Source: a virus
IMG/VR virus record: IMGVR_UViG_3300004097_000003
Location: 1,002-65,001 of that record
DNA length: 64,000 bases
Reading direction: 5' to 3' (one strand)
Below the pieces are notes generated by a model. The model ran no database searches. It saw only the letters and a program-made list of their open reading frames with translations, and was not told the origin of the DNA. The first letter of the stretch is position 1. Each line of letters opens with the position of its first letter. This document shows positions 23,990-40,502 of the stretch, one piece after another. The position numbers and the translations under genes are program-made.

Positions 23990-23998
23990 CAGTAATTT

Positions 23999-24006
23999 AA
24001 ACTAAA
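23999..24006 (+). promoter_or_regulatory. candidate late-gene upstream motif AAACTAAA
   Basis: Same 8-mer in short intergenic gaps at 23999, 40506 and 43944. Confidence 0.3.
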
Positions 24007-24029
24007 GAAACAATTAAGGAAACTTTGAT

Positions 24030-26384
24030 ATGCCTGATATTATTAGCCTCGCAGATAAGCTGCGAATGACTACAGCAGGTAAGCAGTCTGCACTTAACGC
24101 TGACCAAGGTGGAGTTTGGGTAGTACCTAAGTCTTTCGCTGTTGGTACCTTTACTGGAAGTGTTCCAAGTACCGTGCCTGATGATCTGCTTACAAGTCCC
24201 CTATATGGGGGCAATATACATTACGCTGAGGTAGTCAGTGAGCAATCCGTCCGTTTCACATTTGATATACCTACATCTGTAGGCACGGAAGCAGGGATAC
24301 CAATCGGTGAGGTAGTTATATATCTAGATGATGGCACAGCATTCGCACACGCAGTACTAGCGGAACCTTACGTAAAGCGTAAGGGAATAGGTGTTCGCAT
24401 AGAAGCTATGCTGCATATATTAGAAGCACCTGCCGCAGTTATTAATGTTACATTAAGCGAATTAGGAAGTATTCCTAGCGTTGCCAATGTGGAAGCATTA
24501 CCTAGCCCTGTAACATCACTATCAAATGCTATTAGCGTCCTAGACTTAGTACAGAATGTAGATGGTTCTACTAGCCCGGGCGTTGTATGTAAGTATGGTA
24601 ACGGAGGCCAACATTGGGGCTTCTATGGATATAGCCGTATATTCAGTGAGGCTTTAGGTATAGGTAATGCAGTATCTCCTGCTGAACTTAATCAGTCAAC
24701 TGCTATAACTGAATTTGAATTACAAAATGGTGACGAGTTTATTATCCAAGTAATATCGGGTAATGGTGCAGGCGAAACCCGACTATTCAAACTGAATGGA
24801 AGTGACGAAAACGCCAGCTTCGTAGCAGTAGGTTCCGCATTTACGGCCTTGAGTGATAATTCAGTTGTTAGTATATGGGCTCCAATTGGAGCTAGTGGTT
24901 CATCAGGATGTGCTTGGCCCCCACAAGCCGACGGAGTACCTACAGACTGGGTACTTACTAAGGGTGAAGATAGTTGTCCTGTATGGTCGCCTCCTTATAA
25001 AAACAAAGCACAATCAATTACCCTGTACCGGGAGCCTAGCAAGTTAGAGCTAAAGCCTTTTAATACCATGGCTACTTCTGACCGTATGACTTATGATATA
25101 GGAGATGTGTTCCCCGAGAACAATAACTTTGCCTTAGTTAATACTCAGGGTATAAATCAACATCGTAATGCTTTTGATGTAGTTGAAAACCGTATTGAGT
25201 TTAGTCAACGCCTAGTTAACCAGATCATTCTTGACATACGTACGTTCACAAGAGCACCAAGCTCAGGTACTAAGTTAATATGGCATACTGGTGAGCATAC
25301 TGGTAATGGTAGTACTCAAGAGTTTGATATGCCTAGCTATATCGACAGTCCTGAGTTAGCAATTATTACCGTCGACCATGCGCAGCAAGCCCTTACCTCC
25401 TATACTTTAGATAAAGATAGAAGTAAGATTATCTTTACCGAAGCGCCACCTGCAGGTTCTGTTATTCAGATTAGAACAGTTGAGTATATACAGGAGGAAG
25501 GCTTTAGTACTGATATCGTTAGTGTGTCTATGAAGACTTCTGATCTTACAAACGTAATACTTCTTCCTATATCACCTGAGTCTAAAGACCAAGTATTCGT
25601 CAGTGAGCAGGGCTTCTGGGTACACGCCTCTAGTTATGAAGTAGTAGACAATCGTGTTATCTTCAATGGTTCAATTGAGCCAGAGACAAGCATGGAAGTT
25701 TTAGTATTCCAGAATATACGTGCCGAAGGTGTTGCTAGTGCTGACGTTAAAGGAATGGTAGTAGGTGCTGTAGCTACGGCTAAAGGTATTGAATTAATAC
25801 GACATAATGCACCTAGTATAAAGTTACCTGCACCTGAATTCACTATCAAATCAGGCAGTGGTACCCGTGTGACAGGTCAGTACCCTGAATTCCTTATTGA
25901 AAGTACATTGGCTGAACAGATAGCAAAAGATAGCTTCAATAGTTTTAACGTCCAAGCTAAAGAAGAAGATGCCGAGCAAATTCTTATTACACAACGTATT
26001 GAATTTAAAGGGGATATAATAGTACAAGCTAACGCGGACTTAATGGCTGAGCTTGGACCTGGTTTCATATCAGAAAGCGGATATGAGCGTGGTCAATTCG
26101 TACTAGGTGTAAGAACTACAGGTACAGTAGAGCCTGAGTATGGCCGCGGTATTAAAGGTACTGGTGAGTTTGGCATTAAAGCTGTTAGTGAGACACAAGC
26201 ACAAGCATCAGGCTATGGTAATGCCAGTGTTACGCAATCGTGGAACATAATTAAAGCCAATCATCCTGCAGGCTATATAGACATTGTTGCTAAGATGCGT
26301 ATATCTGACGCAAACATCAGTAAGTACGGAAGTAAACTTACAGCACTTTTAAACATAGTAGTGCTTCCTCAATTAGGTTCTTAG
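24030..26384 (+). CDS. tail fibre attachment / proximal tail fibre protein (784 aa)
   Basis: P2 gpH-like N-terminus (TTAGK, GEVVIYLDDGTAFAHA); three internal repeats ending Y/F-x-V/L...R/K-I/V-x-F. Confidence 0.65.
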   Translation: MPDIISLADKLRMTTAGKQSALNADQGGVWVVPKSFAVGTFTGSVPSTVPDDLLTSPLYGGNIHYAEVVSEQSVRFTFDIPTSVGTEAGIPIGEVVIYLDDGTAFAHAVLAEPYVKRKGIGVRIEAMLHILEAPAAVINVTLSELGSIPSVANVEALPSPVTSLSNAISVLDLVQNVDGSTSPGVVCKYGNGGQHWGFYGYSRIFSEALGIGNAVSPAELNQSTAITEFELQNGDEFIIQVISGNGAGETRLFKLNGSDENASFVAVGSAFTALSDNSVVSIWAPIGASGSSGCAWPPQADGVPTDWVLTKGEDSCPVWSPPYKNKAQSITLYREPSKLELKPFNTMATSDRMTYDIGDVFPENNNFALVNTQGINQHRNAFDVVENRIEFSQRLVNQIILDIRTFTRAPSSGTKLIWHTGEHTGNGSTQEFDMPSYIDSPELAIITVDHAQQALTSYTLDKDRSKIIFTEAPPAGSVIQIRTVEYIQEEGFSTDIVSVSMKTSDLTNVILLPISPESKDQVFVSEQGFWVHASSYEVVDNRVIFNGSIEPETSMEVLVFQNIRAEGVASADVKGMVVGAVATAKGIELIRHNAPSIKLPAPEFTIKSGSGTRVTGQYPEFLIESTLAEQIAKDSFNSFNVQAKEEDAEQILITQRIEFKGDIIVQANADLMAELGPGFISESGYERGQFVLGVRTTGTVEPEYGRGIKGTGEFGIKAVSETQAQASGYGNASVTQSWNIIKANHPAGYIDIVAKMRISDANISKYGSKLTALLNIVVLPQLGS

Positions 26385-26385
26385 T

Positions 26386-28554
26386 ATGATTAATGAAATT
26401 CGTTTAAGGACGTTTACTTCGCAGGTTGGAGAGGATAATGAAGTTCTCTCCAGAGACCCGAAGCAGAACGCTATAGAATACGAAGGAGATACAGGTCCCA
26501 ATACTAGATTAGTTGAGGATGTCGCCTTCAATAAAAAACTAGGTGTACTAACATTCATTAGAAACAACGGTGAAGTCATTGAAGCAAGCGGGTTCTTAAC
26601 AGAGGATCAGATAGGGCACGGCCCTAAAGGTAAGGTAGGTAGAATAGGTAAAGCAGGTCGTGATGGTGAAGAAGGCCGACTAGGTAAAGAAGGACCTGCT
26701 GGATGTGAAGGTGCGCAAGGTAATGCGGGCGATAAAGGGATGTCAGGTAGAGATGGTGAGGATGGTCCTGTAGGTATAGCAGGTACTTCTGGATGTGAAG
26801 GAGATGTAGGCCCTGAGGGTGACGAAGGGGATAAAGGTCCTAAAGGATTCCAAGGATCGATGGGTAAAGACGGGTTAGACTGTATCATAGGCTGTCCTGG
26901 ACCTAAAGGGGAACAAGGTTTAGGTACTTTTGTAGTACAAAAGGAAACACCTACTGAGGAGCACGTATACTTATGGGGCGTTCCTTTTGAGAGCGTTTTA
27001 CCTGAGTTACCCAAAAAGCCTGATGATATGTCAGCTTCAATCAATTCTATAGTAGTTACTATGACTAAGGATAGAGGTACTACTTATACTGCTTCAGGCT
27101 CTTTAATAGTGAGCGACTTTAAAGGTGGTGTAGGACCTTTCTCTATCATTTGGACAGGTGACTATAAAGCTAAGTTAGGTATAACTAAGGATAGTATAAG
27201 TAACGACAGCCTAAGATTATCACTTGATGCCTCCGCTGAAATAGAACCAGGTGAGGTTGCTGAGATTGCTGGCGATGCCGTTGTTACCATAACGGATACG
27301 TCAAATGGTAAACAGCTAGTTTTACCTACTACGTATGAATTTAAAGGGAGCAACAGTACGGTAGTTGCTCCTCCCATATACGGTAACGTACGTGATGCAG
27401 CCGTTGTTGAAGGTGATGACTTAAAGTTCTTAGTAACTACTACGAGTCCTTTACTCTCATCAGTACGAATCACATATACGCTAAAGTCAGGAACAGCAGG
27501 AACCTCCGACTACAAGGATTTGGGTCAAGGTTACATGGACTTAAGCATAGGCGTGGACCAGTTCTACGTTAATGTAGAAGCAATACGCGATTCTATACCT
27601 AACGAAGATGTGGAAACAATGTCGGTTACTGTTAGTATTCCTGGCGTATCTGAATTAAATGCAGGTGATATGACAGCAATAGGTACTATTACTGAGGCTG
27701 ATAGCCATATAGTACCTATTGTCCTAGGGCCTGCAGTGGTGACGGAGGGAAGTACTGCAAAAATAACCATCAGGCTAGGTGGTTCTTACATAGAAGGTGT
27801 CACCGGCGGCTACGCAGTTAAGTATAGAACATTATCGGATACAGCGGGTACGTCGGACTACGTAGCTCGGTCTGGGACTCTAACTTTCACCTATAGTTGG
27901 GAAGAGAAAGTCATTGAAATAGCAACAATAGATGATTCTATTGTTGAAGCCACTGAGCAGTTTTATTTTGAGTTGTACGATGCAGGTGCACATCTTGACT
28001 TAGGTGGAGATACTAAAAAAGTTACGGTTACAGTTAATGACAATGACGAAACTTATAGGGGTTCTACCGGCGGTGGGTGTATAGGATGGGGTGCGAAAGT
28101 TGAAACGCCTGAAGGTACTACATCTATAGAGACTGTATTGATAGGTGATACTATCCTAGGATACGCTGAGCCTAGTATGTCAACAAGTGCTAATTCAAAC
28201 GATCCAGAAGTATTAAACTGGCACGCCCTTGAGTTAAGAGGCAAACGTGCTTGGGTTATGGTTACAAATGCTAGGCATGATACATACCCTCAATACAAAG
28301 TTATCAACGATCTTAACTTAACTTTCGATCATCCTGTCATGACTAAGCGTGATGGCGTATGGCAGTGGCTACCTGCCCTGCAAGTTATAGTTAGTGATAT
28401 TGTCCTAGGCACTGATAGTCAAGAAGTCCCAGTTACAATAGCTACAGAAGTATACAAAGAACTTAAAGTAGTAGAGCTTGACGTTGAGCCTCACGATGTC
28501 TATTATGTTAACGACATACTAGTCCACAATGTGAATAAAATTGTACATAAGTAA
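26386..28554 (+). CDS. collagen-like fibre with two Calx-beta domains and C-terminal Hint autoprocessing domain (722 aa)
   Basis: 29+ Gly-X-Y triplets from 26620; Calx-beta x2 (about 27379-28047); Hint: GGG|C565, T646-F-D-H649, ILVH-N715. Confidence 0.85.
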   Translation: MINEIRLRTFTSQVGEDNEVLSRDPKQNAIEYEGDTGPNTRLVEDVAFNKKLGVLTFIRNNGEVIEASGFLTEDQIGHGPKGKVGRIGKAGRDGEEGRLGKEGPAGCEGAQGNAGDKGMSGRDGEDGPVGIAGTSGCEGDVGPEGDEGDKGPKGFQGSMGKDGLDCIIGCPGPKGEQGLGTFVVQKETPTEEHVYLWGVPFESVLPELPKKPDDMSASINSIVVTMTKDRGTTYTASGSLIVSDFKGGVGPFSIIWTGDYKAKLGITKDSISNDSLRLSLDASAEIEPGEVAEIAGDAVVTITDTSNGKQLVLPTTYEFKGSNSTVVAPPIYGNVRDAAVVEGDDLKFLVTTTSPLLSSVRITYTLKSGTAGTSDYKDLGQGYMDLSIGVDQFYVNVEAIRDSIPNEDVETMSVTVSIPGVSELNAGDMTAIGTITEADSHIVPIVLGPAVVTEGSTAKITIRLGGSYIEGVTGGYAVKYRTLSDTAGTSDYVARSGTLTFTYSWEEKVIEIATIDDSIVEATEQFYFELYDAGAHLDLGGDTKKVTVTVNDNDETYRGSTGGGCIGWGAKVETPEGTTSIETVLIGDTILGYAEPSMSTSANSNDPEVLNWHALELRGKRAWVMVTNARHDTYPQYKVINDLNLTFDHPVMTKRDGVWQWLPALQVIVSDIVLGTDSQEVPVTIATEVYKELKVVELDVEPHDVYYVNDILVHNVNKIVHK

Positions 28555-28564
28555 GGAGAATTAA

Positions 28565-29197
28565 ATGTTAACTAGACCTCCTATGGAATCAGTTAATGCT
28601 AACGGTACTGCCAGTCAGACTGACGTTATAGTTAAAGACGGGAAGTTAGCTGCGGGTAACAAAGAAGATAGTCAAACCGCTGAGGTACAAGATATATTCT
28701 TCGATTCTACTGTCGGTATTCTCGTCATAGAGTTTACTAATGGTGAGACTAAGCGTGTATCTGGGTTCCCTACGTTCGGAACTATACCGGATGGTCCTGC
28801 AGGTCCTACAGGCGACCCTGGTGAAGACGGAAAAGAGGGACGTGACGGACGTGACGGTGAAACAGGAGCACCTGGATGCTTCGGGCCTATTGGACCTAAA
28901 GGAGTAGAGGGTGATCCCGGACGCAATGGCGAAGATGGAGCACCCGGAGCACCTGGACCTAAAGGCTGTCCTGGTCCAGCAGGTAATAAGGGACCTAAAG
29001 GGGAACCTGGAGATGTGGGGGAACCTGGAGTACAAGGACCTCCAGGTGATACAGGTCCTCAAGGCCCTGAGGGTGAGCGTGGTCCAGCAGGTAAAATCAA
29101 CTATATCATAAGTACATCAGACCCAGGAACTAGCGCAGGTGCTGGCAGTATATGGATTAATCCTAACATTACAGAAACCAGCCCGGCTTGGCCGTAG
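28565..29197 (+). CDS. collagen-like fibre protein (210 aa)
   Basis: About 34 uninterrupted Gly-X-Y triplets from 28793; AAGGAG RBS. Confidence 0.9.
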
Positions 29198-29205
29198 GAG
29201 TTAGT

Positions 29206-30273
29206 ATGAGTGACGTTAAAACCAATATGCTAGATATCGGACATATTAGCGGTGACTTACGAGTCCAAGATGGAACGCTTAAAATTGTCCCTGATTCTAT
29301 GACGCCTAATGGCAATGTTACAGGATATATTGATAAAACAGGAGTCTTGACTATTGACATACCTGGCCACGGTACTATACAAGCAAACGGATTCCTAACG
29401 CGTGCTGATATCGGTCAGGGGCATGAAGGCAATAGGGGAAATGAAGGCAGTAATGGAACTGACGGATCGATAGGATTAGATGGCTCCAAAGGTGTTATAG
29501 GTGATAGGGGAGAAGTAGGTAGTAGAGGCGTACCTGGAGTAAGAGGACCCAGAGGCATGCAAGGCAGTTTTGGCCAAAATGGCAATAGTGGTGCGGAGGG
29601 AGTTAAAGGAGATGACGCCTTTGTTAATATGTTTATACAGGAGTCAGACCCAGGGGCTCCAGGCGCAGGCGCAGTATGGGTTAAACCTATATACACCCAC
29701 CTGCAAGAAGCCATTGCTGATATACAAGCCAATTGTAGTAGTGATGAAGATGAAGATACAGAGGAATTACCAGTCATTGAAGGTGATTCGGAATCACATC
29801 CTTATACAAGTGATGGACATGCTACAGGTAGCTTAGTCGTTTACTTCGATACAAGTACGTACACCACTTTAGAAGACAGCGGTAAGGAATTCATACGTGT
29901 AGAAGAAGAAGAAAGATTCATACTAATACTTAGACTACTTTCGCCGTTACCTATTGATGCTGTATTCCAAGTGAAACTTAGAGAGGACCCTACTAATATT
30001 GCATGGGCGGGATTCAAATGGGATTCAGATGACGCTAAGGGTACTGTAGAAAGAACACTTACAATACCAGCAGGTAAGTTAGTCTCTGATGAACTTACCG
30101 CTTACGTTCCTGAGGATTGGGTAATCGCAAGCGATAGCGGTTATGGCGAACTTGCAATTTCGTCCGATTCAGGTAACAATCAAATAATGATTGACGAAAG
30201 TACGTACCAATTTGTCAGTGATTCCCCCAAATTGAACTATATTAAGATGCGAGTCTATCCTAAGATTTCGTAG
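29206..30273 (+). CDS. collagen-like fibre protein with C-terminal Calx-beta-like domain
   Basis: Start 29206 (AGGAG RBS); 22 Gly-X-Y triplets; DPGAPGAGAVWVKP cap; TLTIPAG. Confidence 0.85.
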   Translation: MSDVKTNMLDIGHISGDLRVQDGTLKIVPDSMTPNGNVTGYIDKTGVLTIDIPGHGTIQANGFLTRADIGQGHEGNRGNEGSNGTDGSIGLDGSKGVIGDRGEVGSRGVPGVRGPRGMQGSFGQNGNSGAEGVKGDDAFVNMFIQESDPGAPGAGAVWVKPIYTHLQEAIADIQANCSSDEDEDTEELPVIEGDSESHPYTSDGHATGSLVVYFDTSTYTTLEDSGKEFIRVEEEERFILILRLLSPLPIDAVFQVKLREDPTNIAWAGFKWDSDDAKGTVERTLTIPAGKLVSDELTAYVPEDWVIASDSGYGELAISSDSGNNQIMIDESTYQFVSDSPKLNYIKMRVYPKIS

Positions 30274-30306
30274 TATTACATAATTTTCTAAACACGTGAG
30301 GTGCTT

Positions 30307-30798
30307 ATGTTAACAAGACCACCACTAAATGCAATTGATGCTGGAGCCGAAAGCGGTGACGTAACTTCAAATGCACTTAATCTACAAGTAGAATCTATTG
30401 ACGATAGTATAGCGACTGAGCTTGGTGCTAAATACGATTCAGTCAATGGCTCTCTAGTTATATCATTCCCAGGATACCCACACCTTAGGATAAACGGCTT
30501 CATGACGCCTATTCATATTAAAGAAGGCAGACAAGGTAAACCTGGGTATGAAGGCAGAGAAGGAATCGAAGGCACTATAGGATCTGACGGAGAGCAAGGC
30601 CAGCAAGGATGTTTAGGCCCAGAGGGTCCTCAGGGACGTCCAGGTCAACGTGGACCTAGAGGTCAGATGGGTTCTCAAGGTGAGATTGGTCCTACGGGTC
30701 CTGATGGGGCTAAAGGAGAGCCTGGAGAATTTCTAGTCTATATACAGAACGACGAACCCGTAGGGGTGGAGCACGGTGCGCTGTGGGTGAAACAATAA
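30307..30798 (+). CDS. collagen-like fibre protein
   Basis: Start 30307 (GAGGT RBS; MLTRPP, identical to the 28565 start); 23 triplets from 30526. Confidence 0.9.
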   Translation: MLTRPPLNAIDAGAESGDVTSNALNLQVESIDDSIATELGAKYDSVNGSLVISFPGYPHLRINGFMTPIHIKEGRQGKPGYEGREGIEGTIGSDGEQGQQGCLGPEGPQGRPGQRGPRGQMGSQGEIGPTGPDGAKGEPGEFLVYIQNDEPVGVEHGALWVKQ

Positions 30799-30810
30799 TT
30801 AGGAACTAAT

Positions 30811-33468
30811 ATGGCACTTAACTTAGAACTATCAAGTTCGAATGAAAAGTCAGTACTATACGATGGTGAGTACGGAGATTTAGACTACATAGAAAGCTCC
30901 TTAACTTTATATTTTAGTGTAGAAGGAACTAGCTCGTATTCTGTTACGATTATCGATGCGGATACAGGAAACGACCAGACGTCTATCGTACAAGTCGGTC
31001 AGGGAACACTAACCATAGACCTTCGTATTCTAAAAAGTTATTTCACAATAGGTACTACCGTATTCGGTGGTACTGTTGTGTTACAGATAGACGATAATGA
31101 TAGTACTGATACTGGTCAGTTTAACATCGACTTCCATTTCGCCGTTACAAATAACGCAGTATACGTGGCTCCAGTGACATTCGGCCTCAGTACAAACGGT
31201 ATTGCCATTAGTACTGAGTTACAGCGCAGTAGTGGTATTGATTTCGTTGAGCGCGCCGCGTATCCTACGGTAGAAGTACTTGGAGGCTCAGGTCCTTTCG
31301 AGTACACTTGGGTTCCTGCAAACTTTGAACACTTCTTAATAGAATCAGTAGAAGGTCTTGATACAGACAAACCTACCGTAAACTATAAACTCGATGTTGC
31401 GTCGGACCTACCTGAAGAACTATTTAATTCCGATGGAGGCAAGTGGACTCAGACAGGTATATTTAACGTAAGCGTTCGAGATACCAGTAACGGTGATATC
31501 TCGTTAGGAGAAGTATCCTGGAGCTTCACTGTTAGTGTACAGGAGGAGGAAAGAGGCGACTCGGTAGTTAAAGAAAGCAGAATCATACCAGGACGATTTA
31601 GAGTACGAAACCCTCTCAATAGCTTCTGGTATGACTTATGTTATTATGAAATGTACGTCTTTGATAAAGATTACCTACAGTGGATTAGACTATTCCCTAA
31701 TAAGGTGTTTGTGCGCGATGGAGGCAGCAGTGATTGGATTGAAATAGGTTGCATTACTGATACTTCCTATGACGACCCTTGTGCAGGCTTCGGGTCAGGT
31801 ACCGATTGTTCAGGTGAACCTCAAGATCCTCTTGCGGGATCTGGTGATGGATTTGGTTCTAATGGTCCTTCATACGATGTCGATACAGGATATCCTGCAG
31901 GCTTTGATATGCCTGACAGCTCACTCGGTGGCTACGGTATTAAGATTGCACCTAAAGCCACTGGTTACGATACTCCGGTAGGTTACATAATGCAGCGTCC
32001 CGGACTACAGTCGGAAGAATCTTATGATCCTACAGGTCTATCTGCCGATGAAGGCGCTCACGGTAAGTATAATAGTCCTAACTTAAATGGAGCCAGCACT
32101 TGGGGTAGAGGTGCAGCGGTTACTGAGACTATATATGAATTACCTGCACAGAATGGTTATTACGAACTTCTCTATGCTGCTTACGATTCCGTTAGTATCG
32201 ATGTTTACTACGTAGGTCAGCGAGTAGCTACAACATGTGGACCTGTGCCTAAGTTGACGCGAGGTCTATTGACGTTTAATGTTAACATAGCGACAGGTCT
32301 AGGTGAAAGACGTATCATGATTAGGGTACGTGGTGCCGAGGATGTTAGATGGGCTTACCAAGTAGTAGGTCCTAAAGCTTCACCTGTGCTACAAGATTTC
32401 GATAACCAAGACGATGATGATTACGCAAATATCAATGAGTTTCTTTACGAAGAATCTGAAATGATGCAAACCCAGTACATAGGTACGCCTATGTTTCCTG
32501 CACCCTGTCACGGCACTGTAGGTAATGTAGATCAGACGTTTCCTTGGGCATTATCTGATAGAATTGAGACGCAAAACTGGTTTGAGTACTATCACTATGT
32601 CGGCGAAAACGGGGGTCCAATGGTGCTCGATTTTAGCTCATGGGCAGCCGCTGACTACGTTGAAATCTGGCAAAATGGGGTTCGGATAGCTACATCTCAA
32701 GATTATAACCAAACTCCAGGCTATGTTGATTTTATATATGAAGCCCGTGAAGGCGTTCAAGATATAATGGTTAGAGTGCATACAGAATCAAAAGGTATGG
32801 GTCAAGATTTAAGTACTTGGTACTATACACTATTCTGCCCTAACGCAATTGGCCACAGAAGACAACCATGGCCTTGTGGGCCTGACGTTATATACAGCAT
32901 GGGACATCCTGCCACAGAGGATAACTTTGATATAGATAACGGCGTCGAGCGTGGTGCCTTTAAAGTATACATGCGAGAGTGTACGGCTACTACATTAGTT
33001 AGAGTATTCAATAGAGACGGAGACTTGATAACGTCGATGACGGGCGAAGGTGACTTCGATGTAGAGGCTTTCAATTTCGATGTGGTTACAGGAGAAGTAC
33101 ATAAGGATATATATGTACGTGTTGAGACTTCTATAGGGCATGGTTGGCAATACACCGTAAGTTGTCCAGTACCTTTACTTGATATAATACTAAAACCTGT
33201 AGACCCAAGTGTAGAGTGGTCTATAACCGATGAAATTATACAGGACGATTCTGAGTATGTCGAACTTATCGTAAGCATAAACAAAGCCCAATTGGTTGAT
33301 AGGTCTATTGATTGGGCTACTAGCAACGACACTGCGTATGACCTAACGGACTACTGTGCTGCTAACGGAACTGTGACAATACCTGCTGGACAGACTAGTA
33401 TTAAGATTCAAATTAATTTAGCTCCTTGTGATGCTGAGGATGAGGATGAGGATGCACCTAGCACCTGA
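30811..33468 (+). CDS. tail fibre/adhesin-associated protein with three tandem beta-sandwich repeats and a truncated Calx-beta (885 aa)
   Basis: Repeats ending WAYQVVGP, WYYTLFCP, WQYTVSCP; C-terminal WATSNDTA..DY..GTVTIPAGQTS. Confidence 0.7.
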   Translation: MALNLELSSSNEKSVLYDGEYGDLDYIESSLTLYFSVEGTSSYSVTIIDADTGNDQTSIVQVGQGTLTIDLRILKSYFTIGTTVFGGTVVLQIDDNDSTDTGQFNIDFHFAVTNNAVYVAPVTFGLSTNGIAISTELQRSSGIDFVERAAYPTVEVLGGSGPFEYTWVPANFEHFLIESVEGLDTDKPTVNYKLDVASDLPEELFNSDGGKWTQTGIFNVSVRDTSNGDISLGEVSWSFTVSVQEEERGDSVVKESRIIPGRFRVRNPLNSFWYDLCYYEMYVFDKDYLQWIRLFPNKVFVRDGGSSDWIEIGCITDTSYDDPCAGFGSGTDCSGEPQDPLAGSGDGFGSNGPSYDVDTGYPAGFDMPDSSLGGYGIKIAPKATGYDTPVGYIMQRPGLQSEESYDPTGLSADEGAHGKYNSPNLNGASTWGRGAAVTETIYELPAQNGYYELLYAAYDSVSIDVYYVGQRVATTCGPVPKLTRGLLTFNVNIATGLGERRIMIRVRGAEDVRWAYQVVGPKASPVLQDFDNQDDDDYANINEFLYEESEMMQTQYIGTPMFPAPCHGTVGNVDQTFPWALSDRIETQNWFEYYHYVGENGGPMVLDFSSWAAADYVEIWQNGVRIATSQDYNQTPGYVDFIYEAREGVQDIMVRVHTESKGMGQDLSTWYYTLFCPNAIGHRRQPWPCGPDVIYSMGHPATEDNFDIDNGVERGAFKVYMRECTATTLVRVFNRDGDLITSMTGEGDFDVEAFNFDVVTGEVHKDIYVRVETSIGHGWQYTVSCPVPLLDIILKPVDPSVEWSITDEIIQDDSEYVELIVSINKAQLVDRSIDWATSNDTAYDLTDYCAANGTVTIPAGQTSIKIQINLAPCDAEDEDEDAPST

Positions 33469-33624
33469 TACTTTCCTAGCTACTATACGTAAAGCTTTTG
33501 AATCTGTAATACCATTTATGTGATTTGATAACCATACAGTCATAAAGTATTAGGGAGTAAGGAGTTAGTAGACCTTGCAGGTAAGTCAGGTAAATGGTGG
33601 CAAGTACTTAATTAAGGAATTATA

Positions 33625-35418
33625 ATGGCAAAACGATTTCATGTTGACTTAGCGAATCCTAGTTTCGGAGTCATAGAAAAAGGTAAAGGAATTGTAACGA
33701 TTCTGGAGGTAGCTGAACCTTTACCTCCAGAGCGGCCTGAACCCGAACTAGTAAATGAATACATCTGGGAATGTATATTTGAAAACTTAGATGGTGATGA
33801 GGTGAAGTCTGTACCTCATAATAGCGAAGAAGGCTACGAGTATATGATAGCCCATATAGATCTAGAAGGTGATAACGAGATTACTTGGAGCCACGTAGCT
33901 AGATTTATAGGGGACAATCCCACAGGTACACCTATGGCGCAGAATATAGATAGTGGTGTAGGCGTGAGTGACAATTTTGGTATATTTATAGATACGTCCA
34001 ACGGTAGTTCTATAATAATTAAAATTATGCGTAGACCTCTACCTGTAGCTGCCGACGAAGACAGCAGAGTAACAGGAAATGAGTTCGTCCGTGTTAGCGG
34101 AAATGACTTAAGCTACCAGTGGGATTTAAACTACGAATACTACATAACCTGTACTTATGGCACACTATCTAACTATACAGGAACTATAATTACCGATGAA
34201 GTATCCTACGGCTATTCGAGCATAGATAAATCAACTGCTTGGATAGCAAACATCGATCAGGATAGGAAGAAGTGGGTAGGGTTTGGACATAAATCATCAG
34301 AGCCTGGTAATAAATCTTATCGTACAGTAGTTACAAAGAGATGTGACTTACACAGCGTATGGCGCAGGCCTTGGTCGGCATCTAGCCTTCCAGCTAGTGA
34401 GTTTGCCAATGAGCATAAACGTGTTAAGAATAACATGGATAGTCCTTCTACTACTTTAACGTTCGACTGGAAAGATAACAAAGAATACCTCGTCATGATG
34501 GCGGATACTTCTTCTGACAACGAGGTAGCTTGCGCTAAAGTGTATACTACTCCTGGTCTGTTAGAAGTACCAGGCGTAACTAGACATAAATCAGGTATTG
34601 CTGCACCTGGTGGTAACCCATCATGGATAGAATTCCTACAGACCAGCGTAGGCGGTAGTAAAAAGATAGAGGCGCACCACGGATATATATTAAATATACT
34701 CGAAAGAGATATGTTCTATGACCCTGGGACGTGCGGCGCTGAAGGTTTCGTAGGTCCTGTTAGCTCTATTTCATCTTTAGCTAGTATTAACACAATAGGT
34801 AAAATCGCGTTTATGTCTGACACCCCAGGTATTACAAAATACGGGGCTTCGGCTACAGACGGTTCAGCTTTGGAAGTTGAGGCTTATATAGGGGACTGGA
34901 CAGGCAATGTACCCGATGTATACAATGATAAGTATACTAGCGATATTCAAGGTATAGCGATACCTTATAGTTACGGTGGGGGTATCGCTAGTAACATGAC
35001 GCCTTCCGATCCGTATCTAGCCGAGTCAAAATCTACGGCTTGGAGAGGCTGGTACCTATCCGTCATAGACGAAACTGAACACACTTCTGGTATTAAGTAC
35101 AGTAAGATAACGAGTATCGATATTAACAAGTACGTAGATGGCCACACTTTAGTAATAAGGTGTGAGGACTCTGCTGATGGTGATTATACGCTTGAGAGTA
35201 ATTCCTCGATAGTGGACAACAACACAGGACGCTCCGTTAGCCTTAGTGATATCTACGGAATCAGAACTAAAGCATTACACATAGGATTTCAAGATACCTT
35301 AGCAAGAAATCAGTCAGGAATGGATGCTGAGGTTACTATTGCTATTGAATTTGAATTTCATGATGGTACGATGTTTTCACATACATTGACTCTTGCCGCT
35401 AATAGTGAAATATATTAA
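33625..35418 (+). CDS. putative tail fibre / receptor-binding protein (597 aa)
   Basis: Acidic, beta-rich ORF within the fibre locus; AAGGA RBS; no family recognised. Confidence 0.6.
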   Translation: MAKRFHVDLANPSFGVIEKGKGIVTILEVAEPLPPERPEPELVNEYIWECIFENLDGDEVKSVPHNSEEGYEYMIAHIDLEGDNEITWSHVARFIGDNPTGTPMAQNIDSGVGVSDNFGIFIDTSNGSSIIIKIMRRPLPVAADEDSRVTGNEFVRVSGNDLSYQWDLNYEYYITCTYGTLSNYTGTIITDEVSYGYSSIDKSTAWIANIDQDRKKWVGFGHKSSEPGNKSYRTVVTKRCDLHSVWRRPWSASSLPASEFANEHKRVKNNMDSPSTTLTFDWKDNKEYLVMMADTSSDNEVACAKVYTTPGLLEVPGVTRHKSGIAAPGGNPSWIEFLQTSVGGSKKIEAHHGYILNILERDMFYDPGTCGAEGFVGPVSSISSLASINTIGKIAFMSDTPGITKYGASATDGSALEVEAYIGDWTGNVPDVYNDKYTSDIQGIAIPYSYGGGIASNMTPSDPYLAESKSTAWRGWYLSVIDETEHTSGIKYSKITSIDINKYVDGHTLVIRCEDSADGDYTLESNSSIVDNNTGRSVSLSDIYGIRTKALHIGFQDTLARNQSGMDAEVTIAIEFEFHDGTMFSHTLTLAANSEIY

Positions 35419-35428
35419 GGAGATTACT

Positions 35429-35983
35429 TTGCCTACTGTTCAAAAACATTGGCTAGTTAACGAATTGGACATTAATACTTATGACGGAAGTTATCAAGTA
35501 GAAGGTGTCCCTTACGTTAAGAACCAAAGCTGTGGCTTTATCATTAAACCTAATTGGGGACTTAGTGTTGACGTAGTTAGCGGTAAGACTATCTTGGGTC
35601 CTAAAAAAGGTAACTTAATGTTAGCTATAATACCGGATAGTACATTACATAAGTCCGAGTGGCTAGAAGGCCAGACGTCAGGTGTTATCGACATAGGGCG
35701 TTTTCATTACGAAGATAGCCAAAGCTACGACTTCACTATTGTATCCAAAAGGGAATCAGGTAAAGGAATAGTCGTACCTCCAGTAGGGACGCATAGCTTT
35801 AAGCAAGATGTATATTCATGGCTTAAATCCCCAGATGCTGCGGTATTTTCTTTCGAAATACATTTGGTAATTGATGACACAACGGATTATATACAAGAGT
35901 TCACTCCGTTATTAGTTAATTTAATAAAAACTCAGAAGTCCAGCAATATAGGCTTCCACGCCGAAGACAAAATAGAGGTATAG
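35429..35983 (+). CDS. hypothetical virion-associated protein
   Basis: TTG at 35429 downstream of AAGGAG preferred as start. Confidence 0.6.
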   Translation: MPTVQKHWLVNELDINTYDGSYQVEGVPYVKNQSCGFIIKPNWGLSVDVVSGKTILGPKKGNLMLAIIPDSTLHKSEWLEGQTSGVIDIGRFHYEDSQSYDFTIVSKRESGKGIVVPPVGTHSFKQDVYSWLKSPDAAVFSFEIHLVIDDTTDYIQEFTPLLVNLIKTQKSSNIGFHAEDKIEV

Positions 35984-35985
35984 TA

Positions 35986-38373
35986 ATGGCTACTACCAAC
36001 TTTGCACCTCTGCTTACAGTGGGTGATGAATACGACTTGTCACCTTTTAGTGGCAGAAACATGGTAATACATGCCCAACGCAATAACACAGGATATACGT
36101 ATACATTCAGCATTGACATACTGACTGGTTTTGATCAAGATCGTTACTACGGTCTTATTGTACCTTCGGGACATGGAGAGATACCTCAATCCAATCCTAA
36201 TCAGTTGTTTAAAATCACAGCCGATGCTAAGCTTGTACCTCTTAACTATAGTGATGGTCTTGCAGCACAGATTAGCTACCTTACAGGTGATGATGCAGGA
36301 ACTCCAGATATCAATGTACATTGGGGATCAGTAGCCCAGCTTACGGTTATCTCAAGTACTGCAAATGAGGGAACTGAGGCGCTACTTAGAATATACAGGG
36401 ATGGTGATACTTCGGGTGCGGTTGATATTAATATTGGTTTTATTCCGGGGACCGCGGACTTAGATGATGTACAGTCTATACCTCCATCTGTTACTATGCA
36501 GTCGGGCTTCTCGTTTGTGGATGTACCTATTACTATTAAGACTGACCTTGATTACGAAGGGGACCAGTCATTTTTATTAAGTGCCCAAATAGCAAATGCG
36601 CCTAATGGGGAGGAATGGACAGGTAGTAACTACAGGCAGTTGGTTATTGTAGATACAACTCCTGAATTTCCTGTAGATGTACCCGGTTGTATGGACGTTA
36701 CCGCTAACAACTATAACGATGAGGCTACGATCGACAATGGCAGTTGTACCTATGACCCTGTAGTTGTACCAGGCTGTACTGACCCTCTAGCCAACAACTA
36801 TGATCCACTGGCTACTTCGAACAACGGCAGCTGTACATACGACCCAGTGGTGGTATACGGATGTACTGACCCTTCGGCAAGCAACTATAACCCACTAGCT
36901 ACAGATAATGACAATTCCTGTGTCTATCCGCCTCCTGTAGTGGACTGTCTAGTCGTAGGAGACTTACTGGAAGTAGAACATTGGTTTAAAGTTTGGTTTA
37001 TAGAGCCTGTTGACGGAGAACAGCTACACGACCAAGATTTAATTCAGTATAAGTGGAGCGGTGACTGGGTAACTGACCCTCGTATAGACCTATTCGATTA
37101 CTCGGAGAAAAATCGTGTAGCGATGTTCAAATTCACCAACACTATGTCTTCATCTGATAGTGACGTAGATGTAGACTACGAGGTAACAGCTTGGGCTAAA
37201 GATTTAAGGTTCATTACGTTAGATGTTACTGACGAAGATAGTGCCAATGTAAGCTTCTCTATGCCTTGTGTTATTGCAGGTAATACCCCAAGCTTTAGCG
37301 TAGGCGACATTACAGTTACGGAACCTAGTAGCGGTACCCTAAAAGCATCTGTTTATATAACGGCAAGCGAAGCCGTAACGGGTGGATCTATTACAATCGA
37401 TTACTGTTCGAGTGATATAACCGCTACGTCATCTAGTGCCTCTGTAGATGGAGACAGAGATTACGAGCCTGCCTGCGGTACGGTTACTTTTGAAGTAGGT
37501 GAAAGCTCTAAACAAATAGATGTAACTATAAATACTGATAATCTGTACGAACCTTCCGAGACATTAAAGATGACCATATCTAATGTCAGTCGGGGCAGTA
37601 TATCAGACTCGGTAGGTACTATAGAGATACAAGAATGGATTGTTCCTACAGTATCAGTTACTCTGGCGTCACAGGGAGCTACGAAAGAATTGTTTGTGGG
37701 TCGCGATACTTCCGGATCGACGGATGCGGTTGAGGTGACAGTAAACGGAAATGTCGAATCAAGACGTTTCTTGATGGAACAGGTCCTCAAGGACTATGAC
37801 ATAGCTATATGTGATGAACCCGTTGAGACTGGTCACGGTAATGACGGATGTTCAGACAATTCTAATCCCCTGTCCCACTATAAAGGTGTTGCGGGTGCTA
37901 CTAGTAATTTGACTGTCAACTATATAAATAGCATACAACCTCTTCTTGATTCAGGTACTCAGGAGATTAGTATCCTAGTAATGAATGATAGCTCCGATGC
38001 AATATCCCATGATAACTCTGTATGGGATAACGAGTGGGCTTGGCTAGGAGCTTTAGGTATCCCTGTTACTCTGACCTTCATACGCGTAATAGGGCAGACT
38101 CATATAGATAACGGTACAGGTAACTATGAATTGGCTCGCATCTGGTTTGAAGAAATCGTTGCTGCTGCACCAGGTAATGTAACGGCTTACTTTAAATCCT
38201 ATAGCTCCTACACAACAGGCGCAGCCAGTGACCTAAATGATATACTAAGCAGTACAGTCAATAATGACTATGCGGCAACATGTAACGCCCGACCCGATGA
38301 CGTTATAATAGTAACAGCACCGGACGAAGACTCAGCCTTATCCTTAGCACAGGGAGCCATAACATGTCCTTAG
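35986..38373 (+). CDS. adhesin-like fibre protein: Calx-beta, 3x GCTD Cys repeat, Calx-beta, vWA (795 aa)
   Basis: Calx-beta motifs (GTADLDD, TFEVGESSKQIDVTINTD..E); GC(M/T)D..A.NY...A....SC repeats; LFVGRDTSGS (DxSxS) and ISILVMND. Confidence 0.8.
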   Translation: MATTNFAPLLTVGDEYDLSPFSGRNMVIHAQRNNTGYTYTFSIDILTGFDQDRYYGLIVPSGHGEIPQSNPNQLFKITADAKLVPLNYSDGLAAQISYLTGDDAGTPDINVHWGSVAQLTVISSTANEGTEALLRIYRDGDTSGAVDINIGFIPGTADLDDVQSIPPSVTMQSGFSFVDVPITIKTDLDYEGDQSFLLSAQIANAPNGEEWTGSNYRQLVIVDTTPEFPVDVPGCMDVTANNYNDEATIDNGSCTYDPVVVPGCTDPLANNYDPLATSNNGSCTYDPVVVYGCTDPSASNYNPLATDNDNSCVYPPPVVDCLVVGDLLEVEHWFKVWFIEPVDGEQLHDQDLIQYKWSGDWVTDPRIDLFDYSEKNRVAMFKFTNTMSSSDSDVDVDYEVTAWAKDLRFITLDVTDEDSANVSFSMPCVIAGNTPSFSVGDITVTEPSSGTLKASVYITASEAVTGGSITIDYCSSDITATSSSASVDGDRDYEPACGTVTFEVGESSKQIDVTINTDNLYEPSETLKMTISNVSRGSISDSVGTIEIQEWIVPTVSVTLASQGATKELFVGRDTSGSTDAVEVTVNGNVESRRFLMEQVLKDYDIAICDEPVETGHGNDGCSDNSNPLSHYKGVAGATSNLTVNYINSIQPLLDSGTQEISILVMNDSSDAISHDNSVWDNEWAWLGALGIPVTLTFIRVIGQTHIDNGTGNYELARIWFEEIVAAAPGNVTAYFKSYSSYTTGAASDLNDILSSTVNNDYAATCNARPDDVIIVTAPDEDSALSLAQGAITCP
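36682..36942 (+). repeat. three tandem 87-nt (29 aa) coding repeats, GCTDPxAxNYxxxAxxxxxSCxY
   Basis: Units start at 36682, 36769 and 36856. Confidence 0.9.
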
Positions 38374-39035
38374 AAGTTCCTGTATTTGTACAGAACGTAC
38401 CCATTAGGCCTTTGCAGCGTAAAGTACAGTGGTACGAGTTTACGCCGTCAAAAGTAAATGGTTTCTTCGACTTCGTACTATCACAAGGGCGTAAGCCTAT
38501 AGGCCGTATCGATATATTCCTAGGAACTAAGTTAATTCAATCGACCAGTCCTACAGATGCACCTGAATTTGATATACAGACCTGGAAGAACTTTAATGCC
38601 AGTAAGTTTGCGATGGAGCCTAGAGGCGCTATTGAGTTTAGTAATATAGATAAATTCTTTATAAATAAAGATGATGTTATTTACGTCAGGATAGAGGCAG
38701 AATTACCGGCAGCCTTTAGATTTTCACTTAATAGATGCCATATCCTGGATTTAAGTGAGTCTATCGGCCTCGTTGTAGATGTATGTAATAGTACTAGATT
38801 AATTGTCGATCAAGGCCGCCAACCTTGTAATTTCAGAATAGACTTTGGTAAGATACTTAGTACGGATTTTACTCTATCGGAGCATACCAGTAAGATACTG
38901 TCGGTGCCTATTAGCGCAGACGCTTCGGTTGAGTGGTCTTATGTACCAGGCCGCGATATTAGAATTCGAAGTATAGAACTTTCTACCATAGTACCCTATA
39001 AAACTAATATTCGAATAGTGAGGAGTAATGGCTAA
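38364..39035 (+). CDS. fibre-associated protein (223 aa)
   Basis: N-terminal half resembles the repeats of 30811-33468 (WYEF..., IDIFLG..LIQST, IYVRIE). Confidence 0.6.
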   Translation: MSLEVPVFVQNVPIRPLQRKVQWYEFTPSKVNGFFDFVLSQGRKPIGRIDIFLGTKLIQSTSPTDAPEFDIQTWKNFNASKFAMEPRGAIEFSNIDKFFINKDDVIYVRIEAELPAAFRFSLNRCHILDLSESIGLVVDVCNSTRLIVDQGRQPCNFRIDFGKILSTDFTLSEHTSKILSVPISADASVEWSYVPGRDIRIRSIELSTIVPYKTNIRIVRSNG

Positions 39036-39243
39036 CTCAATCTTATTAAGAGCTAGGGATTCAGATGGGAGTTGGATTGAAAACTTCCATCTAGGTGCTT
39101 GGTTGATGCGCAATGAAGATAATACCGCTTGGGTACCAATGACAACTGCAAATACTAGAATCGCTAATCCTGATTATGATCCAAATGATTTAGATTCAAT
39201 TATGTGGTTGGTTCCCGGCGACCCAAGACAAACTGGAGATTAG
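39028..39243 (+). CDS. small fibre-associated protein (71 aa)
   Basis: GAGGAG RBS; R(D/N)xxxxxW repeats as in the middle of 30811-33468. Confidence 0.65.
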   Translation: MANSILLRARDSDGSWIENFHLGAWLMRNEDNTAWVPMTTANTRIANPDYDPNDLDSIMWLVPGDPRQTGD

Positions 39244-39244
39244 T

Positions 39245-40006
39245 ATGTTAACTAAACCGAAGATTAGTATGATAGCTCCAAGTCAGAACTCTGCTGATAA
39301 TGATGTAGTGAAGACGGCTGGAGGTAAGTTAAAGTCGGAGCAGAATGTAGTACCTATAGGGGACGCCGCAGTTAAGAGTGGCCGATATGATACTACGACA
39401 GGCACTTTGATGATAACGTTAGGTGATGACAGTACTTTAGTCGTGGAGGGTTTTCCTACTGACCAGAGTATAGGAACTGGCCCTAAAGGTGATAGAGGTG
39501 CTGTAGGAAAAGGAGGCCGTCCTGGCAAGAACGGCAAAGATGGATTAGATGGCCCTCAAGGATGTCCAGGGTCTAAAGGAGATAAAGGTGAAATCGGTCC
39601 TACAGGGCCAGAAGGCCCTATGGGTATAACGGGTGAGCAAGGTATTCAAGGTATTCAGGGCCAGCAAGGTGACAGGGGACCTAAAGGAGAACCTGGGCAA
39701 GAACCTATTTACGTATACAGTGAAGCAGGTAGTGAAGAACGAACAGTACAATATGGCCGTGTCATGCTGTGGGGTCACTATCAGTCGGACGGTAGCGTTA
39801 ACACTGCTGATGTTAGGTATCCTCAGGCTACAACTAGACTTACACAAACTGTAGTAGCCTTCTTCGCTAATCCTCAATCCGTTCAAGCTCAAAACTATGA
39901 GATTGAAGCGCAGACGAAAGAAGGGTTTGCTCTACGCGTACCATCATCATTTGCCTTACCCCTTGATGACGATTGGGACTTCCAATGGATAGCACTAGGA
40001 GATTAA
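39245..40006 (+). CDS. collagen-like fibre protein with C-terminal tip domain (253 aa)
   Basis: 25 Gly-X-Y triplets from 39479; C-terminal MLWG...FQWIALG resembles common fibre-tip lectin-like domains. Confidence 0.85.
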   Translation: MLTKPKISMIAPSQNSADNDVVKTAGGKLKSEQNVVPIGDAAVKSGRYDTTTGTLMITLGDDSTLVVEGFPTDQSIGTGPKGDRGAVGKGGRPGKNGKDGLDGPQGCPGSKGDKGEIGPTGPEGPMGITGEQGIQGIQGQQGDRGPKGEPGQEPIYVYSEAGSEERTVQYGRVMLWGHYQSDGSVNTADVRYPQATTRLTQTVVAFFANPQSVQAQNYEIEAQTKEGFALRVPSSFALPLDDDWDFQWIALGD

Positions 40007-40007
40007 T

Positions 40008-40502
40008 ATGTTTTATGCTTCGTATGACGTAAATAAAAAGGGCGATAACATAAAAGGATTCTATCCTTTAACTCACCCTGAGATACCTAAACAGTGTATA
40101 CAAATCACAGAAGCCCAGCGTGATAAAGTAATACGGTACCCAAACCATTTTCGTGTTGAATCCGGTAGGTTAATACAGATTAAAGACACGAGGCAGGAGC
40201 TACAGAGACGGAGATTAAGTAATATCCGTAAAGAAGCTAATGCTAAGAACAAGTCGCCTATAATAGTAGGGAATCTAAAGTATTTTGTAGATTCCACGTT
40301 CTTAGGCAATCTTAATCTTAATTTAAGTGTATGCTCAAATTTAAAAGGTCATGTATGTTCTCTATGGGCTGTCAATAGTTCAGGTGATTGGGAATTTATA
40401 GTACATGATAAACAGATGCTAATTGATGTGGCTGTTGCTTTCAACTCTAGGCGAGAATCTATATCTAGAGAATTGTACGGTCAATCACCTAGTGATACTT
40501 AA
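40008..40502 (+). CDS. tail fibre assembly chaperone-like protein
   Basis: Follows a fibre gene; GFYPLTHPEIPKQCIQIT start and DUF4376-like C-terminal half. Confidence 0.55.
   Translation: MFYASYDVNKKGDNIKGFYPLTHPEIPKQCIQITEAQRDKVIRYPNHFRVESGRLIQIKDTRQELQRRRLSNIRKEANAKNKSPIIVGNLKYFVDSTFLGNLNLNLSVCSNLKGHVCSLWAVNSSGDWEFIVHDKQMLIDVAVAFNSRRESISRELYGQSPSDT

Follow-up and report, generated by a model that had tools for sequence, protein, structure and literature searches.

A probable tail-fibre or tail-'hair' gene module with collagen-like, Calx-beta, Hint and vWA-like domains in an uncultured marine jumbo myophage

Collagen-like proteins and their partner domains

We analysed 64 kb of viral DNA (the window, by which we mean the whole stretch), which runs from base 1002 to base 65001 (1002-65001) of an IMG/VR contig of 83 kb with an estimated completeness of 32%, and in it a locus at positions 26386-40502 that encodes a family of collagen-like fibre proteins together with large acidic non-collagen proteins. 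The locus is a densely packed run of open reading frames (ORFs), all on the + strand, with a guanine-cytosine content of about 0.42-0.45 against about 0.40 overall. A preliminary description, made from the sequence, had listed five paralogous collagen-like proteins, about six Calx-beta domains in four genes, a vWA domain with an intact DxSxS motif, Cys-rich stalk repeats and a C-terminal Hint domain, all lying after baseplate genes. Each of these elements was recovered in our analysis, the vWA domain from a predicted structure and the Calx-beta domains in a smaller number, five in three genes. Coordinates of all features are collected in Table 1.

All five collagen-like ORFs passed the Pfam Collagen (PF01391) gathering score, with 33-64 bits against a cutoff of 27.2, and fibres 1 to 5 carry 29, 34, 22, 23 and 25 uninterrupted G-X-Y triplets, respectively. 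No further run of at least eight G-X-Y triplets occurs in the six frames of the 64-kb window. A non-repetitive N-terminal domain of about 78 aa, in which G53, L55, G69, F70, T72, I76 and G79 are invariant, is common to all five, so that the paralogy does not depend on the repeats alone and the genes are true paralogs. A PDB profile search with this shared docking domain returned no match. Cys occupies the X position of triplet 10 in four of the five fibres, and in two of them that of triplet 20 as well.

The lengths of these collagen runs are conserved well beyond the window. Within each orthologous group, triplet counts are fixed across the genomes compared (those of the window and of L001, L003, L004, L005 and L009), at 29, 34, 23 and 24-26, with 22 for the extra paralog: the counterparts of fibre 2 (43% identical to JA29_098 of Dickeya phage JA29 over its full length) have 34 triplets in all relatives, those of fibre 4 have 23 in all relatives, and those of fibre 5 (homologous to JA29_093 over its full length) have 24-26. 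The fibre 3 paralog was found only in the window and in its closest relative, L003. Cys at triplet 10 is near-universal across the clade, despite only about 30-40% identity between genomes. The fixed triplet numbers point to strict selection on length, like a molecular ruler, and suggest that the helices act as spacers in a defined architecture.

In fibre 1 (P0001), after the docking domain and the 29 triplets, come a post-collagen domain of about 150 aa, two Calx-beta domains, a GSTGGG linker, the Hint domain and a tail of seven residues. The orthologues P0005 and P0006 retain this whole architecture (64% and 56% identity), and Y3_110 of Erwinia phage Y3 and NCTB_136 of Phage NCTB combine collagen and Hint without Calx-beta. 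As a separate observation, P0001 aa 195-335 (26970-27390) and P0003 aa 120-265 (31170-31600) share a module of about 110 aa (BLASTP E 0.002) with the motifs G-G-x-G-P-F-x-x-x-W and T/R-D-T-S-N-G; it is SprB-like (Pfam SprB E 0.12).

Calx-beta domains were sought with Pfam (PF03160), which passed two of them (P0001 472-554 and P0002 437-537), and with a custom profile of 251 domains from unrelated proteins, hhalign serving as a second test. The custom profile found five domains, at P0001 337-439 and 448-554, at P0002 124-209 and 440-549, and at the C-terminus of P0003 (about 815-881). Those beyond the reach of Pfam (P0001 337-439, P0002 124-209 and P0003) had independent E-values of 1.5e-13, 2.2e-8 and 6.2e-11, and the hhalign probability for the Calx-beta domains was 93-97%. 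Homologue matches to P0001 span about 220 aa of Calx-beta proteins, which leaves room for two domains in tandem. An acidic motif of the D-x-x-x-E-x-x-E type is visible in both P0001 domains and in the second of P0002, and these modules probably bind Ca2+ and serve as spacers. The C-terminus of fibre 3, a candidate for a fourth Calx-beta gene, was rejected: hhalign gave it a probability of 1%, neither the custom profile nor Pfam supported it, and the domain of about 200 aa, which lacks a Pfam match, has a fold of no recognised kind.

The Calx-beta domain of P0003 is divided between two genes. P0003 consists of an N-terminal beta-rich region, a conserved core (aa 262-788) for which a PDB profile search gave no match, the incomplete Calx-beta and an acidic tail; its Calx-beta covers only profile positions 13-78, and residues 2-30 of the 597-aa protein encoded next match positions 77-106 (hhalign E 1e-4). 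When the P0003 C-terminus and the start of the 597-aa protein were concatenated, the match extended over positions 13-105 and scored 64 rather than 50 (E 1e-11). The two halves are separated by a 156-nt spacer (33253-33714 overall). The same split boundary is found in L003 (14606-20014) and L006 (2-2241), where the upstream protein ends in a Hint domain, and the Calx-beta is intact within a single ORF in NCTB_132 and L009_1370.

Complex prediction with P0003 786-885 and residues 1-60 of the 597-aa protein gave a score of 0.53, against 0.00 for the best of three controls, which lends weak support to a contact. In the calibration of this method the pass mark was reached by 51 of 78 solved complexes and by 2 of 108 mismatched pairs, and scores of at most 0.60 took in 5 of the 78 solved complexes that passed but all 4 passing mismatches. 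The runs shared at least 98% of contacts, with a partner pLDDT (predicted local distance difference test) of at least 58. The split suggests that the Calx-beta may be a trans strand-complementation joint between two fibre proteins. For the 597-aa protein the Protein Atlas gave nothing informative: its own model is poor, with a pLDDT of 0.43, and all matches had a TM (template modelling) score below 0.3. The 196-aa protein encoded after it is conserved in L003 and is fused in L006 to the homologue of the preceding gene.

Calx-beta domains elsewhere in the clade carry insertions. P0054-P0059, which are relatives of P0002, have an inserted domain of about 195-260 aa inside the second Calx-beta (alignment A2, columns ~505-765), with motifs that resemble an alpha/beta hydrolase-like or ThuA-like fold; the insert is cleanly absent from the P0002 of the window. 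NCTB_132 and L009_1370 have a similarly large insertion in their Calx-beta, and Calx-beta loops seem to be domain-insertion hot spots in this clade.

The Hint domain starts at Cys565, directly after Gly564, and contains T646-F-D-H649 and H714-N715, with Val at +1. We built a profile of seven sequences from P0001, its orthologues P0005 and P0006 and the Hint domains of Y3, NCTB and L003. Against the PDB it matched 2LWY, a 'bacterial intein-like domain' (BIL), over the full length (E 6.2e-9), followed by the Pho RadA intein (3e-5) and the gp41-1 intein (2e-4); the single P0001 sequence matched mini-inteins at E of about 1e-3 across blocks A, B and G. C565, T646/H649 and H714/N715 are invariant in the seven diverged sequences. 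At +1 the window has Val, most relatives have Ala, and Y3 alone has Thr; the remaining 7-10 residues of the protein are poorly conserved. Since there is no conserved +1 nucleophile and the tail is short, this is not a splicing intein, and on its motifs the domain would most simply self-cleave at Gly564/Cys565.

Several features are common to this domain and the BIL/PT-HINT type represented by 2LWY, namely the N-terminal Cys, TxxH, the C-terminal His-Asn, the lack of an endonuclease and of a conserved +1 nucleophile, and a place in an extracellular filamentous protein. It differs in standing at the extreme C-terminus, with 7-10 residues after it and nothing released or spliced downstream, and in being borne by a phage collagen fibre. 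Other fibre proteins of the relatives also end in C-terminal Hint domains. Word-based searching for homologues of the Hint region on its own returned the two orthologues and no others, and an IMG/VR scan with the Hint alignment gave no confirmed relative. Beside the Hint-bearing fibre of other members lies a further gene of interest: in NCTB (BN7874_135, L004:14951-15412) and in L009 (4267-4728) a 153-aa gene annotated as 'intein domain protein' follows it directly. This protein has no Pfam match and no counterpart in the window.

P0002 is an adhesin-like protein with an N-terminal domain, a Calx-beta, Cys repeats, a middle domain, a second Calx-beta, a vWA-like domain and a small beta-beta-alpha subdomain ending in Cys-Pro. 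Its residues 232-317 form three 29-aa units with two Cys each, seen in the DNA as an 87-bp tandem repeat. Cys counts are even in P0002 (14) and P0003 (12), and P0003, the 597-aa protein and P0002 are all strongly acidic. The 29-aa repeat (G-C-x-D ... N-Y ... S-C-x-Y) belongs to no Pfam family; it recurs at about 46-49% identity in Synechococcus phage S-CAM3, there within a virion structural protein, and in a marine single-cell virus contig, and it may be a marine-phage stalk module traded between unrelated phages.

The vWA-like domain is very divergent. For P0002 545-795, Pfam at E up to 10 gave no VWA family match and a PDB sequence search gave no match; a HMMER search over 1.84 billion representative proteins found only 14 relatives of the domain, none with a Pfam vWA match, and an IMG/VR scan with the vWA alignment gave no confirmed relative. 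Most of the 14 carry Calx-beta and one (P0068) is a stand-alone collagen protein capped by the domain. Among the encoding contigs that were examined, those long enough to show neighbours (250-311 kb, and a 12.5-kb piece) have the domain within the same fibre module. D574-x-S576-x-S578 and two Asp residues after the hydrophobic strand 'ISILVMN' are invariant in an alignment of 16 sequences. The AlphaFold2 (AF2) model made from this alignment had a pLDDT of 86.5 and a predicted TM score (pTM) of 0.79. Nearly all of its top 50 VIA-align matches were vWA domains (Z 10-12.0, root-mean-square deviation 3.1-3.6 A over 145-168 residues), including INTS14, Rpn10, Ku80, the PitA pilus adhesin, LapA vWFA, ITIH1, vWF A1 and integrin I domains, and Foldseek against the PDB, BFVD and AFDB clusters returned vWFA proteins at probability 0.9-1.0. 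A vWA-like fold for this domain of P0002 is supported by the model, and its DxSxS/Asp site most likely holds a divalent metal.

The predicted fold resembles those of vWA tip adhesins (RrgA, GBS104, PitA, Mfa5, the PilB minor pilin and LapA vWFA) and the integrin I domain, with Z of 8.5-11. By the prediction, DxSxS ends the first strand, an Asp follows the fourth strand, and the domain would sit at the distal end of a long fibre of beta-sandwich spacers. Unlike these adhesins, the domain lacks sequence-level membership of the family and adds a beta-hairpin after DxSxS, with invariant Asn-Gly and Arg, and the C-terminal beta-beta-alpha subdomain.

Baseplate context and relatives in jumbo phages

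The genes directly upstream of the locus encode a PAAR spike tip, a weakly matching gp25-like protein and a baseplate wedge subunit, which supports the reading of the locus as a fibre module and agrees with the position after baseplate genes proposed at the outset. Between the wedge gene and the fibres lie two large conserved tail proteins (1562 and 784 aa) with homologues in JA29_102 and JA29_100, and they precede the fibre genes in every relative. The 784-aa protein has a weak match to the N-terminal domain of the T7 tail fibre, and both proteins are candidate scaffolds or fibre attachment sites. At the other end of the locus, the 164-aa basic protein always stands directly after the last collagen gene and from this position is a candidate fibre assembly factor.

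Table 1. Features of the fibre locus and of the baseplate genes upstream, with window positions
Feature	Position	Strand	Basis and layout
PAAR spike tip	17138-17425	+	Pfam PAAR_motif, E 1.4e-8
gp25-like protein, weak	17429-17827	+	GPW_gp25, E 1.6e-4, below Pfam cutoff
Baseplate wedge subunit	17830-19290	+	PHROG 219, E 1e-60; 34% identity to JA29_103
Two large conserved tail proteins (1562 aa, 784 aa)	19301-26384	+	PHROG 14098 'tail protein', E 6e-145; PHROG 21488, E 3e-217
Fibre 1 (P0001, 722 aa)	26386-28554	+	Pfam, triplet run, profiles
Fibre 1, 29 triplets	26620-26880	+	Cys at triplets 10 and 20
Fibre 1, Calx-beta 1	27394-27702	+	
Fibre 1, Calx-beta 2	27727-28047	+	
Fibre 1, non-splicing Hint (BIL / PT-HINT type, aa 565-715)	28078-28530	+	Profile against PDB 2LWY
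Fibre 2 (210 aa)	28565-29197	+	Pfam Collagen; docking domain, triplets, short Trp-containing cap
Fibre 2, 34 triplets	28793-29098	+	Cys at triplets 10 and 20
Fibre 3 (361 aa; start TTG 29188 or ATG 29206)	29188-30273	+	Pfam Collagen; docking domain, triplets, C-terminal domain
Fibre 3, 22 triplets	29419-29616	+	No Cys
Fibre 4 (165 aa; likely start the ATG two codons in)	30301-30798	+	Docking domain, triplets, Trp cap
Fibre 4, 23 triplets	30526-30732	+	Cys at triplet 10
P0003 (885 aa, non-collagen)	30811-33468	+	PHROG 26008; also JA29_096, Y3_107; 12 Cys
P0003, incomplete Calx-beta	33253-33453	+	
597-aa protein, no recognised fold	33625-35418	+	First 30 residues (33628-33714) would supply the last Calx-beta strands
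196-aa protein, start uncertain	35393-35983	+	No Pfam or PHROG match
P0002 (795 aa, adhesin-like)	35986-38373	+	Pfam, profile, AF2; 14 Cys
P0002, Calx-beta	36355-36612	+	
P0002, Cys repeats	36679-36936	+	
P0002, Calx-beta	37303-37632	+	
P0002, vWA-like domain	37666-38271	+	D574 at 37705
223-aa protein, function not recognised	38364-39035	+	No significant family match
Fibre 5 (253 aa)	39245-40006	+	Docking domain, triplets, C-terminal head of about 100 aa
Fibre 5, 25 triplets	39479-39703	+	Cys at triplet 10
164-aa basic protein	40008-40502	+	32% identity to NCTB_127 and L009_160, same position; no family match

The window DNA is present in only two sequencing runs, both of one marine metagenome sample, and the same proteins are also carried by a 262-kb contig. 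Megablast of the 14-kb locus against deposited phages gave no nucleotide match, and a promoter and terminator scan was uninformative, with counts at or below the shuffled expectation. Relatives were found at the protein level: tblastn with P0003 matched 62 jumbo-phage records, from phages of Erwinia, Dickeya, Pseudomonas, Yersinia, Salmonella and Alcaligenes, and metagenomic contigs of 250 and 311 kb carry the same module. Identity to JA29, Y3, NCTB and the metagenomic counterparts is 31-43%.

A survey of synteny across jumbo phages, which the preliminary description had proposed, found the module conserved in the Y3/JA/NCTB lineage, with gene-for-gene correspondence to the cultured phages Erwinia Y3, Dickeya JA11, JA13 and JA29 and the pEa_SNUABM phages, and with synteny to Phage NCTB as well. 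By BLASTP and tblastn, ten JA29 genes were matched in the same order (wedge, about 1500 aa, about 775 aa, three collagen proteins with 324, 210 and 164 aa, the counterpart of P0003, a large and variable protein, a further collagen protein with 272 aa and a small protein), and the Y3 and NCTB loci were equivalent. After the wedge and the two tail proteins, Y3 (Y3_110 to Y3_103), JA29 (JA29_099 to JA29_092) and NCTB (BN7874_136 to _127) share their gene order with the window, and with it the same triplet counts (29, 34, 23 and 24-25), Cys at triplet 10 and the P0003 core protein. A Hint domain likewise closes Y3_110 and NCTB_136, both of which bear the annotation 'contains intein domain'. The window differs from all three in its fifth paralog (22 triplets) and in the two Calx-beta domains inserted in fibre 1. 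It further differs in the split of a Calx-beta between two genes, and from Y3 and JA29 in having the Calx-beta/Cys-repeat/vWA-like P0002 at the position of their 'ILEI domain' proteins. NCTB does have a homologue of P0002, NCTB_131, which matches aa 321-795 at 29% identity, vWA-like domain included.

Parts of the module already bear labels in GenBank. Y3 and NCTB entries include 'tail fiber protein' and 'putative phage tail protein, contains intein domain' (Y3_110 among them), and NCTB (258 kb, from surface water) adds 'large intein domain protein' and, for the P0002 homologue, 'probable aggregation factor core protein MAFp3'. G-X-Y segments also occur in other phage tail proteins (PHROGs 1806 and 30509, 'collagen like minor tail'; 8745, 5073 and 366, 'tail fiber protein'). 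In place of a single variable fibre of this kind, the window has a multigene family with one docking domain and helix lengths fixed across the clade. Our literature search found no paper on collagen, Hint, Calx-beta or vWA fibres in these phages.

The ORF just beyond the locus, at 40526-41386, has as its best PHROG one labelled 'HNH endonuclease'. It shares segments with PHROG 14098 and with the virion structural family of the ORF at 43958-45655; the protein is probably structural and its endonuclease label probably mistaken.

A fibre or hair module and the competing explanations

We consider it probable, at roughly 0.7, that the locus is the tail-fibre or tail-'hair' module of a marine jumbo myophage, uncultured and about 260 kb in genome size, in the Y3/JA/NCTB lineage, working by the mechanism proposed below. 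The module is an elaborate variant of a conserved, uncharacterised one in cultured 'hairy' phages. It is not a new system, and the term 'undescribed system' used for it at first does not stand beside the synteny with Y3, JA, pEa_SNUABM and NCTB and the tail-fibre, intein and MAFp3 labels in GenBank. Phages Y3 and JA have been termed 'hairy Myoviridae', Y3 for hair-like appendages on its tail and JA29 for its 'hairy' morphology, and the hair proteins of these myophages were reported as unidentified, with tail-fibre genes named as candidates (PMC6143709, PMC13282480).

The module would be expressed late in infection, and the shared N-terminal domain would dock each homotrimer on the tail or baseplate. 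Trimerisation is what the G-X-Y repeat predicts, and each paralog would form a short collagen triple helix of fixed length, about 19-29 nm for 22-34 triplets at the standard collagen rise. A ring of Cys at triplet 10 could lock the three chains after lysis, in oxidising sea water, and the C-termini of the paralogs would hold out variable heads. The three large acidic, Cys-rich non-collagen proteins (P0003, the 597-aa protein and P0002) would supply binding surfaces, with P0003 and the 597-aa protein probably joined by completion of the split Calx-beta sandwich in trans. In P0002 the disulfide-stapled 29-aa repeats would form a stalk, and at its vWA-like tip a divalent cation would ligate an acidic group on the host surface, as in the Gram-positive pilus tip and LapA-type adhesins.

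In fibre 1, Cys565 would attack the Gly564 carbonyl, the thioester would be hydrolysed, and the Hint domain would be shed after serving in folding or trimer registration. Fibres of the K1F endosialidase and T5 pb1 type carry self-cleaving C-terminal intramolecular chaperone domains, of the Peptidase_S74 type. Self-removal of the C-terminus from a trimeric fibre after assembly, as proposed here, would be analogous; the chemistry differs (a Ser-Lys dyad there, a Hint thioester here), the folds are unrelated, and Pfam scans of the locus proteins gave no S74 match.

A number of points weigh against this interpretation. The phage is known from its genes alone, and the hair morphology has been seen only in relatives. 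There, as in this phage, the collagen proteins may be fibres of the baseplate or hairs of the sheath. The paralogs may also form heterotrimers. Pfam Hint_2/PT-HINT matches are sub-threshold (E 0.077 here, 0.001-0.01 in relatives), and AF2 on the Hint domain with an alignment of three sequences gave an unusable model (pLDDT 33), so that the Hint fold rests on sequence profiles and motifs. His-Asn is strictly conserved despite the 7-10-residue tail, and simple N-terminal cleavage offers no reason for it. The vWA-like domain, too, is below the Pfam threshold, and the Thr position (T639) of its metal ion-dependent adhesion site (MIDAS) is Thr, Ser or another residue among homologues.

The preliminary description had read the locus as a branched, Ca2+-stiffened, covalently cross-linked, matrix-like network for adhesion to mucus or animal surfaces or for host trapping, rather than as a conventional tail fibre, with the MIDAS binding the collagen Glu of a neighbouring fibre. 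Every matrix-type domain for such a network is present and the relatives are morphologically 'hairy'. Covalent links are conceivable in principle through Hint thioesters and Cys rings, and branching, Ca2+ stiffening and cross-linking are all chemically possible. According to a comparative review, moreover, jumbo-phage fibres in general often bear animal-like adhesion domains (PMC7824862). However, the GER of the GxxGER motif in the 34-triplet fibre is absent from the closest relative and is not positionally conserved in the clade, and the strictly conserved helix lengths favour a defined architecture over a loose network. The comparison drawn with Vint/Hedgehog-type proteins, in which Hint and vWA co-occur, is loose, as the Hint domain is in P0001 and the vWA-like domain in P0002, separate proteins whose genes are 7 kb apart. 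In cultured relatives the module belongs to ordinary lytic phages, whose hosts are plant-associated and enteric bacteria (Erwinia, Dickeya, Pseudomonas, Yersinia and Salmonella), and the sample is a marine metagenome without an animal link. What holds of the original proposal is a virion appendage module, supported by position and synteny; the network is improbable, the data lend no support to branching, Ca2+ stiffening, covalent cross-links or mucus or animal targets, and a phage extracellular matrix aimed at animal surfaces is not supported.

Two other explanations turn on the Hint and vWA-like domains. Hint domains may act as ligases, as in Hedgehog, which couples cholesterol: the Gly564 thioester would then react with a nucleophile of another virion protein or of the host envelope, coupling the fibre end to it covalently. 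The Gly/Cys junction, TxxH and HN are intact and invariant, and in relatives the protein encoded just before the gene for the missing Calx-beta strands ends in a Hint domain, an arrangement that would suit ligation of two fibre segments. Yet the split-domain pair of the window has no Hint and keeps the split anyway, the downstream proteins begin Met-Ala or Met-Pro and so offer no Cys, Ser or Thr for native ligation, and the bacterial intein-like domains characterised so far mainly self-cleave. We regard ligation as unlikely. It is doubtful in a similar degree, and improbable as a whole, that the fibre apparatus is joined both by Hint thioester ligation (to a virion protein or the host envelope) and by trans-completed split Calx-beta; if it were, these joints and the Cys rings would make the 'hairs' of such jumbo phages a covalently stabilised multi-protein structure, and Hint chemistry would have its first structural role in a virion. 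It is very unlikely that both domains are evolutionary passengers, the Hint a mobile intein-like element in decay and the vWA-like domain a metal-free structural alpha/beta domain, with host recognition elsewhere, for example in the fibre heads or the P0003 core. Both domains do fall below Pfam thresholds. In JA29, fibre 1 has 162 post-collagen residues, too few for the domain of about 150 aa plus a Hint, and in JA29 and Y3 an 'ILEI domain' protein takes the place of P0002, so neither the Hint nor the vWA-like domain is essential to the module. Nevertheless, among sequences with only 27-37% identity neither the Hint catalytic residues nor those of the DxSxS/Asp site vary, which indicates selection on the active sites rather than decay.

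Implications for the hairy jumbo phages

The preferred reading, that of a tail-fibre or tail-'hair' module, would bring three features that are uncharacterised in phage fibres. One is a conserved, putatively self-processing Hint domain at a fibre C-terminus, and another is a highly divergent vWA-like domain whose metal-site motif is invariant, from which cation-dependent adsorption is predicted. The third is a beta-sandwich domain encoded in two parts by separate genes, a possible joint between subunits. They may find use in fibre engineering, as self-cleaving tags, metal-switchable binding and modular joints.

What the window holds is a marine variant of the module, enriched in Calx-beta and with a very divergent vWA-like tip domain. 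For the lineage as a whole, the locus gives concrete candidates for the 'hair' proteins, still unidentified at the time of the 2018 JA phage study (PMC6143709). Their candidacy rests on the conservation of helix lengths across the clade and on the shared docking domain, and the relatives Y3 and JA29, which have the same module, are in culture.

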